Part shown: one piece after another, positions 1 through 3,291 of the stretch
How the letters are laid out: every line of letters begins with the position of its first letter
Position numbering within the stretch: the stretch's first letter is position 1
From: Candidatus Poribacteria bacterium
GTDB taxonomy: Bacteria; Poribacteria; WGA-4E; WGA-3G
Assembly: GCA_965197475.1 (NCBI GenBank)
Contig: CBDANF010000003.1
Coordinates: 1,664,001-1,728,000, forward strand
Direction: 5' to 3'
DNA length: 64,000 bases
The notes under the pieces: model-generated
What the model saw: only the letters and a program-made list of their open reading frames with translations
The model's database searches: none
Told to the model about the DNA's origin: nothing
Made by a program: the position numbers and the translations under genes

Positions 1-655
1 ATTTGTGTTGATGATAGCTTGTTTTGTTATCAGCACGAGCGACATGGCACAGGCGGAGGAAGTCTTGGGAACAGGAACGGCGGCACTGCTCGGAGGAGAC
101 CTAACCGACCCAGAAGACGATGGTGCTCCTGATTCAGATGACGGTTACAACGCCATTTTCTCAGCCAACGAAGAACCCGGATTCGGGGGTGGGGAATTTG
201 CGTTTAACGTCTTCGATAACATCCTTGGCGGCGGCAATGCCAAATGGTGCTGAGGACGTGGAGGCGGCTTTCCGGAGGAAGGCCTACACGTGACAGCTGA
301 GTTTGAGGAGCCGTACGCATTGACACACTTTACCGTATCTTCAGCGAACGATGTTCCTGCAAGGGACCCTACAGTATGGGAGGTTCAGGGGTCGAACGAC
401 GGCGAAGAGTTTACGACCATCTTTTCTCACGACGGGGCTAGCTTTTGGGATCAGCGACTGCAAGTCGTCCTTTTTGAGGCAGGGGAAGATTACGACGATC
501 AAAAAATCGGGTATCTGTTTTTTCGGCATGTTACTTTTGCCACCGGGGGGGGCTTTCAAATTGGCGAAATTGAGTACTTCGGCGATGATAGTTATGCCGT
601 AGACCCTAAAGCCAAGCTTACAACCACATGGGGAAGCATCAAAAACGTCCGATAA
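1..655 (+). CDS. Secreted discoidin/F5-8C-like protein, 5'-truncated by the window edge, with in-frame TGA at 251-253 (candidate selenocysteine, otherwise a nonsense pseudogene)
   Basis: ORFs 5..253 and 290..655 are in the same frame. Read through the TGA, the protein is collinear with the paralog at 1560..2243 (KWC*GRGGGFPEEGLHVTAE vs KWCCGRGGGIPEEGLHVTAE). Ends in the VDPKAKLTTTWGSIK motif. Confidence 0.8.
254..291 (+). promoter_or_regulatory. Candidate bacterial SECIS hairpin directly 3' of the UGA
   Basis: Lower stem ACGTG(256-260)/CACGT(287-291). Upper stem GGCTTTCC(266-273)/GGAAGGCC(277-284). G-starting apical loop GGA begins 20 nt after the UGA. Confidence 0.55.
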
Positions 656-724
656 GTGAAGTGCCATCGATTTTTTAGACCAGAATTTCGTAAAGTTAAG
701 ATCAAGTGTTCTTTCTCAAATTCA

Positions 725-1217
725 ATAGGTGTCAAATAGCCTAACGCTGAGCCCTGATCCCGCCGACTGGGGCTAAAGAGTATGTCTTACACCGTTTTCT
801 GGACACATTCCGCACCGCTGGGGTTGCTACCATTACAAATTAGCACCGTTTTGCTAATACCACACACTAAATTGACGCTTATGGTGTGATTAGGAAACCG
901 CACCATAGGTGTCAATTTAAGGAATTGAACCAGTTTTTGTGAATGTTTATAGCCCCAGAGGGCGAAAGGTGTATAGACACGCGACTCTACCAAACTCAAG
1001 CCCCAGCGGTGGCAGCATGCGCGTGTGGCATGCTGCATGAGGTGTCCATGTTGTGTGTGATACACCTGTCGCCCCTCCGGGGCTAAAGAGTATGTCTAAC
1101 ACCGTTTTCTGGACACATTCCGCACCGCTGGGGTTGCTACCATTACAAATTAGCACCGTTTTGCTAATACCACACACTAAATTGACGCTTATGGTGTGAT
1201 TAGGAAACCGCACCTAC
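725..1217. repeat. Composite REP/MITE-like repeat cluster containing a 136-bp direct repeat (769-904 / 1079-1214)
   Basis: Direct repeat has one mismatch. Inverted ends CCATAGGTGTCAATTTA (903-919) / TAAATTGACGCTTATGG (868-884 and 1178-1194). Internal modules are shared with the MITEs at 26896 and 59828. Confidence 0.85.
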
Positions 1218-1559
1218 CGGTAAGGAGAAAATAAGAATTACCAAAAGAATAAGTTAATCTTCATATAAGGGGCAGGGGGTTGGAAATTTAGGGATTTCAA
1301 AACATAGTATACTGAAATTACTTACCGAGTCAACCACTAACTAACACAAGTCGTTATGATGATCTAATTCTTTGCGTTGTTTTCTATATTTTTTAAAAAT
1401 AATATTGAATTTTTTATGATAATATGAAATAATATGTTATTATGGAACACAGATTAGTAAAGATTGGTATGGTAAATGAGTGCAGTTTATTCAAACTCAC
1501 GTAACTTAACACGAAACTCACGTAAAAGTGAGATTCATTTCTTTAGGAGGTTTAACGGC

Positions 1560-2243
1560 ATGAAAAATATGTTGGTATTAGCAGGAATTGTGTTGATGAT
1601 AGCCTGTTTTGTTATCAGCACGAGCGACATGGCACAGGCGGAGGAAGTCTTGGGAACAGGAACAGCAGCACTGCTCGGAGGAGACCTAACCGACCCAGAA
1701 GACGATGGTGCTCCTGATTCAGATGAAGGTTACAACGCCATTTTCTCAGCCAACGAAGAACCCGGATTCGGGGGCGGGGAATTTGCGTTTAACGTCTTTG
1801 ATAACATCCTTGGCGGCGGCAATGCCAAATGGTGCTGCGGACGTGGGGGCGGCATTCCGGAGGAAGGTCTACACGTGACAGCTGAGTTTGAGGAGGTGTA
1901 CGGATTGACACACTTCACCGTATCTTCAGCGAACGATGCTGCTGGGAGGGACCCTACAGTGTGGGAGGTTCAGGGGTCGAACGACGGCGAAGAGTTTACG
2001 ACCATCTTTTCTCACGACGGGGCTAGCGTTTGGGATCAGCGACTGCAAGTCATCCGTTTTGATGCAGGGGAAGATTTCGACGTGCAAACCACCGGGTATC
2101 GGTTTTTTCGGCATGTTACTTTTGCCACCGCGGGGGGCTTTCAAATTGGCGAAATTGAGTACTTCGGCGATGATAGTTTTGTCGTAGTAGACCCTAAAGC
2201 CAAGCTCACAACCACATGGGGAAGCATCAAAAACGTCCGATAA
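1560..2243 (+). CDS. Secreted discoidin/F5-8C-like protein (Cys-containing paralog)
   Basis: AGGAGG RBS at 1545-1550 before ATG 1560. Signal peptide, then FDN...KWCC, HFTVSSAND..RDPTVWEVQGSNDG and FQIGEIEYFG motifs, then the C-terminal TTWGSIK motif. Confidence 0.85.
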   Translation: MKNMLVLAGIVLMIACFVISTSDMAQAEEVLGTGTAALLGGDLTDPEDDGAPDSDEGYNAIFSANEEPGFGGGEFAFNVFDNILGGGNAKWCCGRGGGIPEEGLHVTAEFEEVYGLTHFTVSSANDAAGRDPTVWEVQGSNDGEEFTTIFSHDGASVWDQRLQVIRFDAGEDFDVQTTGYRFFRHVTFATAGGFQIGEIEYFGDDSFVVVDPKAKLTTTWGSIKNVR

Positions 2244-2581
2244 GCGCAAATATCGGACATTTTCTAAATCGGCTTGAATCCAGTAATAACTGGGTTTGAG
2301 CCGTTTTTCATATCCGCTTGAAACCGTATGGACTATACTGGGGAGGACCTTTTCGATTATGAACCGCGAAAATCTTCATGCTCATATTGATTATGAGCTT
2401 ATAACAGCGGTTCATCTTGGCGCAAATGCCAGCAAGAAAGCGAAGTCAACAACGAATGCAACGATCGTGAGTCGTGCCGCTGTGGGTAACCTACTCTAAT
2501 ATAGCAAAATAAGCCAAACCTGTCCAAAATGTTTTTACGTTTTTTAGCATTTGATTGTCTCCGATAAGAAGATCATATCCA

Positions 2582-2794
2582 CTATTTTTTCTCTGTAGGA
2601 ATTATAGATGTAATCGTCCATGGAATCTTTTTATAGATATAGGTTGATAACCAGGAGAAGTAAACTATTGTTACAATAGTGGCCGCAATGGTAGTAGTGC
2701 TTCCCTCAAAAAGACGAAAGACCTCAATAAGAATACCAAAAATACTGAAAGCAACAAACCAATAAACATATTTCCATTTTCGGGATATAGACAT
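2582..2794 (-). CDS. Small two-TM membrane protein, paralog of the N-terminus of 2836..3291
   Basis: Hydrophobic ORF. WKYVYWF...TTIAATIVTI...STYI aligns with WRYVFWF...TTAAIVVTI...ATYI in the neighbour. Confidence 0.6.
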   Translation of the reverse strand: MSISRKWKYVYWFVAFSIFGILIEVFRLFEGSTTTIAATIVTIVYFSWLSTYIYKKIPWTITSIIPTEKK

Positions 2795-2835
2795 ATTACA
2801 TACTCCATTAAACGAATGAGGAACTGTAGTATTAT

Positions 2836-3291
2836 CTAATAAGTTCCTGTTATTTCTGTACTACATACGCGATATAGTATTCCACCTGGCTGCGAACGCC
2901 TAATTTGGTTATGTTTTACTTTGTCCATATGACATTGATAGACATTTTTACTGCAGCCTCTGGTTTCCTCGTCTCCTTTGCATGTATACATGAATCTATG
3001 TCCCCTGCTCGCCAAACTAGATAGATAACGCGATGTCTCGCCACATTGCAAACATTTCCACTTATTTCCCGCTATACGAACTATGTTCCATATACCCCAT
3101 TGCACTTTCCCTTCAATATAAGTCGCGATTCCCGAAACACTGAGTATTGTTACAACAATCGCTGCGGTAGTTGCGATGGGTTCATCAGCAAAAGTTAGGT
3201 AGGTTTTAATGATTTTAATGAGAAAAGCATAAAGTCCGAAAACGGCAAACCAGAAAACATATCGCCATCCAGGATGTATCATAATAGACAT
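2836..3291 (-). CDS. Membrane protein with Cys/His-rich (zinc-ribbon-like) C-terminal domain
   Basis: Two TM helices, then CLQC...C...C...CH...C. Start placed at MSIMIHP by similarity to the neighbouring paralog. Confidence 0.6.
   Translation of the reverse strand: MSIMIHPGWRYVFWFAVFGLYAFLIKIIKTYLTFADEPIATTAAIVVTILSVSGIATYIEGKVQWGIWNIVRIAGNKWKCLQCGETSRYLSSLASRGHRFMYTCKGDEETRGCSKNVYQCHMDKVKHNQIRRSQPGGILYRVCSTEITGTY

Follow-up and report, generated by a model that had tools for sequence, protein, structure and literature searches.

An in-frame UGA in a poribacterial gene for a discoidin-like, putatively exported protein is very probably a selenocysteine codon

A stretch of 64,000 nucleotides from the sponge symbiont Candidatus Poribacteria bacterium (GenBank assembly GCA_965197475.1, contig CBDANF010000003.1, forward-strand positions 1,664,001 to 1,728,000; this whole stretch is called the window, and its first letter is position 1) opens within a gene whose reading frame is interrupted by a TGA codon at positions 251-253 and continues to a TAA stop. 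Several lines of comparative evidence indicate that this UGA is, in all probability, decoded as selenocysteine (Sec): it lies opposite a cysteine (Cys) codon of a tandem paralog, it recurs at the same codon in intact homologs of the same genus, it is followed by a hairpin of the kind that directs Sec insertion in bacteria, and the genome encodes the corresponding machinery. The fuller explanation, to which we assign a probability of roughly 0.88, is that the gene encodes an exported, CBM32-like selenoprotein in which adjacent residues Cys92 and Sec93 would form a reactive centre.

Results

The UGA codon and the tandem paralog

The frame that contains the TGA is already open at base 2 of the window, and the start of the gene lies 25 nt upstream of it (G000:C3:1663975). 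With TGA translated as U, the gene encodes 226 residues, among them a single U at residue 93 in the motif K-W-C-U-G. A paralog with Cys at this place follows in tandem at an offset of 1585 nt. The original prediction, made from the letters of the window, had placed the TGA opposite the second Cys codon of this paralog (TGC 1836-1838), with an intact frame for 133 further codons to the TAA at 653-655, and the sequence confirms both points. It had also counted just three differences between the copies in positions 254-291, two of them weakening a stem in the Cys copy, and this count holds as well. The differences are at 262, 269 and 283; at 269 the T of the Sec copy, which allows a U.G pair with 281, is replaced by A in the Cys copy to give an A.G mismatch, and at 283 the C of the Sec copy is replaced by T, which turns the G267-C283 pair into G.U.

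Recurrence of the UGA in related genomes

The codon recurs across the genus to which the window belongs. With the Cys paralog as query, a search of 61 related genomes was extended to the whole phylum (176 genomes), 62 loci (L021-L082) were taken, and every homolog was read with TGA as U. TGA stands at exactly the second Cys codon of W-C-C-G in 24 intact full-length genes, distributed over 22 of the 40 genomes of the genus, and in a 25th Sec-form copy that is cut by a contig end; the position is Cys in the 38 other copies examined. No TGA was found at the motif in the sister genus (g13; 106 matches in 60 of 65 genomes) or, among the matches listed, in the remaining genera of the phylum, where 40 weaker matches lie outside the list. 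Of the 112 genomes in the taxonomic family 105 have selA, and within the sister genus 62 of 65 do. Since the Sec form is seen in one genus only and selA is widespread in the family, Sec appears to have been gained here inside a lineage that was already using it. For other phyla the survey consisted of short public proteins rather than a search at the DNA level, and the three sequences among them that do not resemble Poribacteria are Cys forms or truncated.

Public protein collections contain the same genes in pieces. Among the 120 best public matches shorter than 124 residues (P0274-P0393), 62 clusters end in ...K-W-C, 57 of these being exactly 92 residues long, and a further 28 are C-terminal pieces carrying a C-terminal tag that is described below. 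The occurrence of these N-terminal and C-terminal pieces indicates that gene callers split Sec-form genes in two. The alternative is that the split is real, so that the UGA terminates translation and the locus yields an exported peptide of 92 residues and a separate 121-residue protein initiated at GTG 290. Gene callers do report these pieces, and the open reading frame at 290-655 does begin with GTG. However, the break would cut through a single beta-sandwich domain that is unbroken in every Cys homolog, and the C-terminal piece would lack a signal peptide yet carry the putative export tag. The internal start also differs among homologs (M-T-A-E-F, M-T-H-F-T or M-W-E-V), and a hairpin specific to Sec forms would be left unexplained. 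We therefore regard two separate products as extremely improbable and a single Sec-containing protein as the better account of the pieces.

A variant form was encountered in one locus (L076, G015:C170), where TGA occupies the first Cys codon to give K-W-U-C-G and is followed by the same hairpin; this copy is also frameshifted. Six public N-terminal clusters end one residue earlier, in ...K-W (P0369-P0371, P0374, P0376 and P0378).

A SECIS-type hairpin within the coding sequence

The original prediction of a two-stem hairpin with a G-starting loop 20 nt past the TGA, resembling a bacterial selenocysteine insertion sequence (SECIS), is reproduced by the minimum free energy (MFE) fold. In the window the lower stem pairs 256-260 with 287-291 and the upper stem pairs 266-273 with 277-284, the gap between UGA and loop is 20 nt, and the 42 nt after the codon fold at -17.3 kcal/mol. 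The lower stem is found in many Cys forms too and is thus not diagnostic. For the upper hairpin, the Fig. 2 legend of PMC13188914 gives the constraints on bacterial SECIS elements as a loop of 3-9 nt with G in the first two loop positions, a stem of 4-16 bp, a spacing of 16-37 nt and an MFE of -7.5 or lower. When these legend values are applied directly, in place of the bSECISearch program, the window element (GGA loop, 8 bp, 20 nt, and -10.6 kcal/mol for the hairpin alone) falls within every one of them. Such an arrangement is rare by chance: taking the 22,051 Cys codons in long frames of the window's genome as a baseline, a contiguous stem of at least 8 bp with a GG-starting loop of 3-5 nt at +16 to +25 follows 18 of them (0.08%), and a stem of at least 6 bp under otherwise identical criteria follows 115 (0.5%). 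An Rfam scan of window positions 1-3000 returned a single chance-level miRNA match (E 0.45) and no fitting model for the hairpin.

The element is shared by the Sec forms as a group. All 25 have a stem of 6-8 bp with a 3-nt loop located 17 or 20 nt past the UGA, and the triloop reads GGA or GGC in all but one, which has AGA. The full-length genes fall into two types of 12 members each. Type A, which includes the window gene, continues after U with G-[R/P]-G-G-G-I-P-E-E-G-L and has a stem of 3 + 4 bp interrupted by one A.G mismatch, with a spacing of 20 nt; type B is one codon shorter after U and has an unbroken stem of 6-7 bp at 17 nt. In the window copy the type-A mismatch is replaced by a U.G pair because of an Ile-to-Phe change. 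Over the alignments, the eight stem pairs are formed in 85.2% of cells in Sec forms versus 74.1% in Cys forms, and the contrast is concentrated in particular pairs: all 22 distinct Sec rows close the loop with C-G, as do 5 of the 29 Cys rows; at the second outer pair (columns 20/36), G-C predominates among Sec rows (14 of 22) and G.U among Cys rows (25 of 29); and the middle pair, formed in none of the Cys rows, occurs as C-G or U.G in 12 of the 22 Sec rows. The 42 nt after the codon fold at a mean MFE of -11.7 in Sec forms (n = 23) and -8.8 in Cys forms (n = 38), with a Mann-Whitney p of 0.0014 that is overstated because the sequences are related. Most of the hairpin signal thus reflects the fixation of synonymous or near-synonymous sites in a pairing state, with little true covariation.

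Selenocysteine machinery and other selenoprotein genes

The genome (5.7 Mb in 3 contigs) contains the four components that the original prediction had named for follow-up. A tRNA-Sec gene scores 75.1 bits against a cut-off of 47 and is called SeC with anticodon tca by ARAGORN; selB adjoins it, selA is matched at 611 bits, and a Sec-type selD contains an in-frame TGA of its own where one is expected. Additional candidates for Sec decoding are numerous. One in-frame TGA is present in 9 of 23 matches to the AhpC/TSA family, several of them in tandem, and these genes share a near-identical SECIS, in which a 7-bp stem carries a GGU or GGC triloop 21 nt past the UGA; the sole long molybdopterin-oxidoreductase match, which is formate-dehydrogenase-like, likewise has one in-frame TGA. 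The hairpin design seen in the window recurs at 6 of the 11 other Sec codons of the genome (6-7 bp, C-G closing pair, G-starting triloop, 21 nt), and GG-containing loops occur 16 nt past the UGA in selD and 18 nt past it in the formate-dehydrogenase-type gene. An alternative genetic code in which TGA is a sense codon was considered and ruled out, as TGA is the stop of 296 of the 1395 frames of at least 400 codons in the genome.

Stem-loops after stop codons can promote read-through, and this is the sole point, and a non-specific one, in favour of the idea that the UGA is read by near-cognate suppression as Trp or Cys with the hairpin acting only as a stimulator. Against it, the position is Cys in all homologs, the hairpin matches the bona fide SECIS elements of the genome in loop, closing pair and spacing, the Sec machinery is complete, and TGA is a normal stop elsewhere in the genome. 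We find suppression of this kind barely credible in comparison with decoding by the dedicated Sec apparatus.

Selection and the history of Sec and Cys states

Purifying selection continues past the UGA. Downstream of the codon, the ratio of nonsynonymous to synonymous rates (dN/dS, Nei-Gojobori) is 0.24 among 22 Sec forms (231 pairs) and 0.23 among 32 Cys forms (496 pairs); upstream of it the values are 0.34 and 0.28, respectively. Relaxed selection in the downstream part, which the original prediction had named as a possible refutation, is therefore not seen: constraint there is as strong in Sec forms as in Cys forms.

The relationship between the two tandem copies differs along their length. 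The 5' 300 nt of the paralogs are 97% identical, and with approximately 160 nt of the promoter region included (-161 to 302 versus 1424-1887) identity is 96-98%; the 3' halves are less similar. There are 11 differences between the copies in window positions 1-302, four of which (253, 262, 269 and 283) fall at the Sec codon and hairpin, and the residues that set the Sec copy apart from its neighbour are those of other Sec forms. In a whole-protein tree the window Sec copy stands beside its tandem Cys neighbour. A fresh mutation, as this placement would imply, was rejected, because the 97% identity of the 5' parts indicates gene conversion and a tree of the 3' halves parts the copies. In the latter, a DNA tree that starts 14 codons past the Sec codon, the Cys neighbour is placed with Cys forms from two other species (Shimodaira-Hasegawa-like approximate likelihood ratio test, SH-aLRT, 94) and the window Sec copy lies within a clade of all 22 Sec forms, beside a type-A group (SH-aLRT 86). 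Because the 5' parts are near-identical while the 3' halves have different nearest relatives, gene conversion of the 5' half between tandem paralogs is the simplest reading of these sequences. Three tandem copies in another genome (G034) show the same 5'/3' pattern.

More broadly, the trees require 6-8 changes between Sec and Cys states, of which at least 3-4 are forced by well-supported branches. Type B forms one clade in the whole-protein tree (SH-aLRT 98). One Cys form retains a full type-A hairpin and groups with two Sec forms, a combination that points to reversion from Sec to Cys. The trees were built without two partial duplicates of the window's own genes, the contig-end copy, a copy with an unresolved start and a copy with masked bases.

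Fold, family and termini of the protein

The discoidin-like fold suggested in the original prediction is borne out by superposition of a predicted structure. A first structure model, built from Poribacteria-only homologs, had a predicted local distance difference test score (pLDDT) of 65.5 and was poor at the motif; it was replaced by an AlphaFold2 (AF2) model from a diverse alignment with a pLDDT of 86.4 and a predicted template modelling score (pTM) of 0.78. Its best matches include the accessory domain of a GH92 enzyme (7nsn, E 3e-8), CpGH89CBM32-5 (4a41, template modelling score 0.74, root-mean-square deviation 3.3) and the muskelin discoidin domain (4pqq), consistent with a beta-sandwich of the CBM32/discoidin type. 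The accessory domain 7nsn is also the sole sequence match in the PDB (E 1.9e-22). At the level of family models, Pfam PF00754 (F5/8 type C) gives the window's two proteins 26.4 and 27.9 bits, just below the cut-off of 28.2; it has a precomputed match on close homologs and reaches 30.9-118 bits in multidomain relatives. Against NCBIfam, the window's proteins had no match at E up to 1.

The family is large. A profile search of 1.84 billion representatives returned 2432 clusters (50% identity) at E up to 0.001, in which the module corresponds to query positions 28-211 and often occurs in extracellular multidomain proteins of up to 3906 residues, together with PA14, LamG, CBM9, bacterial TSP3 repeats, dockerin and PEP-CTERM. 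K-W-C-C is present in 141 of the 149 best representatives. In an alignment of 47 diverse sequences the only invariant residues are C92, C93, F119, T120, N125, D126, R130 and G139, and the mature protein has no further cysteine.

The N-terminus has the features of a signal peptide (Table 1) and forms a helix at residues 2-20 in the AF2 model, and export by this route is predicted. The C-terminus carries a tag of the form V-[ED]-P-x-x-K-L-[AT]-T-T-W-G-x-[IL]-K plus a few residues, which ends 34 frames of the genome and occupies the position held by a PEP-CTERM anchor (V-P-E-P...R-R-R-R) in homologs outside Poribacteria. NCBI names some homologs PEP-CTERM sorting-domain proteins. The window's proteins themselves have neither a helix nor an Arg cluster at the C-terminus and do not belong to the PEP-CTERM class; the tag may instead be a lineage-specific sorting signal. 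Its V-[ED]-P element resembles a remnant of P-E-P.

Observations that weigh against selenocysteine

A number of observations count against Sec decoding or limit the strength with which it can be asserted. The basis for it is entirely comparative. The hairpin is short and mostly invariant, and covariation is thin: only two pairs are changed on both sides (for example G-C to A-U), a number that 33 of 500 shuffles reach. The original prediction had looked to recurrence of the TGA together with a covarying hairpin; the recurrence and the retention of the hairpin stand, in 24 homologs, and the covariation does not extend beyond these two pairs. Taken alone, the minimal hairpin fails to reach -7.5 kcal/mol in 12 of the 25 Sec forms; every one of the 23 Sec forms folded with context is at -7.6 or below. 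The window's Cys copy retains 7 of the 8 pairs, and so the hairpin is not exclusive to Sec copies. The SH-aLRT value of 86 for the Sec clade is moderate, not strong, and in the structural model the block containing the motif, residues 91-100, has the lowest confidence of the domain (pLDDT 80). No sequencing run contains more than 27% of the words sampled from the assembly, and the data are contigs only, for which depth and transcript ends are uninformative. The TGA is retained in a 152-nt contig of run X1 that has 2 differences, and a 141-nt contig of RNA library X17 keeps the A of the TGA by depth arithmetic, which is at most a weak hint that the Sec form is transcribed; in two of the three RNA libraries, the third codon base is seen only as the Cys letter.

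The remaining points concern decay, and they are those that would be expected if the window copy were a young pseudogene in which a single TGC-to-TGA substitution ended the frame and the downstream part has not yet degenerated. One substitution suffices for this, an intact Cys paralog lies 1.6 kb off, and downstream of the codon the Sec copy and its tandem neighbour differ by 19 nonsynonymous and 8 synonymous changes (dN/dS of about 0.69). The family also loses copies: four Sec-type copies elsewhere are frameshifted, and in one Cys copy (L045, G001:C3:623242-623934) the TGG codon for the invariant Trp in W-E-V-Q-G-S has become TGA. The latter TGA is a nonsense mutation or a sequencing error and not a Sec codon, as no homolog has Cys there. 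The caution voiced in the original prediction, that accessory genes in this DNA decay and that the TGA is one substitution away from TGC, is thus justified for the family, as the frameshifted copies attest, but not for the window copy, given the selection, shared residues and tree position described above. A pseudogene leaves unexplained that TGA occupies the same codon in 24 intact genes from 22 genomes and in 62 public short-protein clusters, that selection downstream equals that in Cys forms, that T269 and C283 of the window copy improve the hairpin, and that the differing residues are common to other Sec forms. We consider it very improbable, and Sec decoding remains the reading that accommodates these observations together.

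Other features of the locus

Between the paralogs lie two 136-nt direct repeats that are 99% identical (769-904 and 1079-1214). The repeat has 21 genome-wide blastn matches at 76-100% identity, as for a dispersed short repeat, and no Rfam match in the scan of window positions 1-3000. Coordinates of the features discussed are collected in Table 1.

Table 1. Features of the Sec-form gene, its paralog and other Sec genes of the genome (window positions unless a contig is given)
Feature	Position	Strand	Basis or remark
Sec-form gene, 226 codons with U93	1..655	+	first 25 nt upstream of window; TAA stop 653-655
Part of signal-peptide-like N-terminus, residues 10-27	1..55	+	Lys, hydrophobic run, A-Q-A before E-E
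Vicinal codons TGC and TGA, candidate Cys92-Sec93 in K-W-C-U-G	248..253	+	translation, alignment of homologs
Two-stem structure, whole	256..291	+	MFE fold
Candidate SECIS upper hairpin GGCTTTCCGGAGGAAGGCC, 8-bp stem (one G.U), GGA loop 274-276	266..284	+	fold, alignment
C-terminal tag V-D-P-K-A-K-L-T-T-T-W-G-S-I-K-N-V-R	599..652 (paralog 2187-2240)	+	translation
Tandem Cys-Cys paralog, 227 codons	1560..2243	+	protein 90% identical to Sec copy
TGC TGC, paralog Cys-Cys pair opposite 248-253	1833..1838	+	alignment of copies
AhpC/TSA Sec genes	G000:C3:1947513-1950191, C2:1239201-1240025 and other sites		in-frame TGA

Discussion

In sum, the comparative results are consistent with a 226-residue gene product composed of a signal peptide, an acidic stretch, a beta-sandwich of the CBM32/discoidin type and a lineage-specific C-terminal tag, into which Sec would be inserted by SelB and tRNA-Sec as directed by the hairpin at 266-284 inside the coding sequence. 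The product would carry Cys92-Sec93 in place of the invariant Cys-Cys of the family. Following export, the two residues would presumably join as a vicinal selenenylsulfide in the loop behind the conserved Trp, and could provide a lectin-like binding domain with a reactive site for redox exchange or contact with a ligand, where selenium would speed exchange and hinder over-oxidation. Replacement of Cys by Sec usually marks a chemically active residue, and the W-U-C-G variant speaks for the two residues working together as a couple. With respect to its origin, the Sec form is likely to have arisen from the Cys form within the genus, at a site where ancestral codons already made most of the hairpin, and then to have split into the two hairpin types and reverted to Cys several times.

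The functional assignment is less secure than the decoding, and here the main rival is a reading in which Sec is inserted but the Cys-Sec pair is a ligand for soft metals or metalloids (Hg, As, Cd, Cu), so that the protein would be an extracellular metal trap. This draws on the CU-motif selenoproteins SaoC and the MerB-like SaoL, which are implicated in metal or metalloid resistance and in which Sec may be a ligand (PMC13188914, section 7). The fold and the partner domains of relatives (PA14, LamG, CBM9, TSP3, dockerin) speak instead for adhesion or glycan binding, no metal-resistance genes were seen beside the genes, and vicinal disulfides that contact sugar rings have been described (PMC12102755). 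On these grounds a metal-binding role appears unlikely, and a redox or ligand-contacting centre is preferred. A more far-reaching proposal, which we put forward tentatively and which is doubtful in its entirety, is that the invariant K-W-C-C pair throughout the 2432-cluster family, whose members include adhesin-like proteins, is a working redox or covalent-capture centre, not a structural disulfide, that has been upgraded with selenium at either position in one genus. These would then be the first extracellular selenoproteins with a lectin fold, and through selenenylsulfide exchange they would bind or process a target, for instance a thiol- or disulfide-bearing component of the sponge matrix, within an exported selenium-based redox network.

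An important consequence of Sec in an exported binding domain of the CBM32/discoidin type is that it widens the range of folds and cellular locations in which selenium is used; the selenoproteins known so far are, to our knowledge, nearly all oxidoreductases whose active sites are thioredoxin-like or contain a metal cofactor. Because Sec almost always marks a chemically active residue, it also points to the invariant Cys-Cys of a large and uncharacterised extracellular domain family as a functional centre. The locus further provides a record of how Sec can be gained from Cys, with a SECIS made from a pre-existing coding hairpin through few and mostly synonymous changes, followed by duplication, gene conversion and reversions. 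Since public annotation splits these genes into two hypothetical proteins, the selenoproteomes of Poribacteria are presumably under-counted.

As far as main-text family lists show, this is a new selenoprotein family with a fold and location not known for Sec. PF00754 and PF22633 are missing from the family table of a 2026 review (PMC13188914) in a term search of its main text, and none of the words 'discoidin', 'galactose' and 'Poribacteria' occurs in its main text or in those of BSepDB and deep-Sep; the supplementary family lists of the latter two could change this. Literature searches on selenoproteins with discoidin, sponge symbionts or carbohydrate-binding modules gave, among the papers listed, nothing relevant by title or abstract, and a search on Poribacteria and selenoproteins returned one paper, on hydrogenases.

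The decoding mechanism is the ordinary bacterial one. The formate dehydrogenase, SelD and Sec-peroxiredoxin genes of this genome share with the window gene a UGA opposite Cys, a small G-starting loop 16-37 nt downstream and the full set of selA, selB, selD and tRNA-Sec, and the window gene differs from them in protein family. Adjacent Cys and Sec are likewise found in a group of bacterial selenoproteins with a CU motif given in PMC13188914, namely SaoC, the MerB-like SaoL, KCU-star (DUF466) and form 2 of the 2Fe-2S CopZ family; their folds and families are unrelated to that of the window protein. Vicinal disulfides of the Cys-Cys type are described as contacting the flat face of ligand rings, including a sugar in 1wd4, as stabilising loops or structure, or as acting as switches (PMC12102755, section 2.5.5). 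The arabinofuranose-binding site of 1wd4 thus offers an adjacent Cys-Cys in a carbohydrate-binding setting, and by analogy a similar ligand contact may occur in the family described here.

With regard to the Cys-Sec pair itself, a relevant example is animal thioredoxin reductase, whose redox centre is a C-terminal Gly-Cys-Sec-Gly. Both proteins have adjacent Cys and Sec followed by Gly, and by analogy a vicinal selenenylsulfide/selenolthiol couple would be expected in the window protein. However, the pair in the window protein is internal (residues 92-93 of 226), lies in a loop of a beta-sandwich and is predicted to be exported, and the protein has neither a flavin domain nor a CxxxxC partner; placed inside the domain and without a flavoprotein domain, the motif is not a GCUG centre of the thioredoxin reductase type. 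The window's family differs also in that Sec can sit first, as W-U-C-G. Close counterparts are the exported K-W-C-C domains of the F5/8 type C (discoidin, CBM32-like) group, which share the module at 28-211, the invariant residues and the CBM32 fold. Many of these proteins outside Poribacteria end in PEP-CTERM, and relatives extend to 3906 residues, whereas the window protein is a single domain ending in the V-D-P...T-T-W-G-x-I-K tag, and it is set apart from all of them by Sec in place of the second Cys or, in the rarer variant, of the first.

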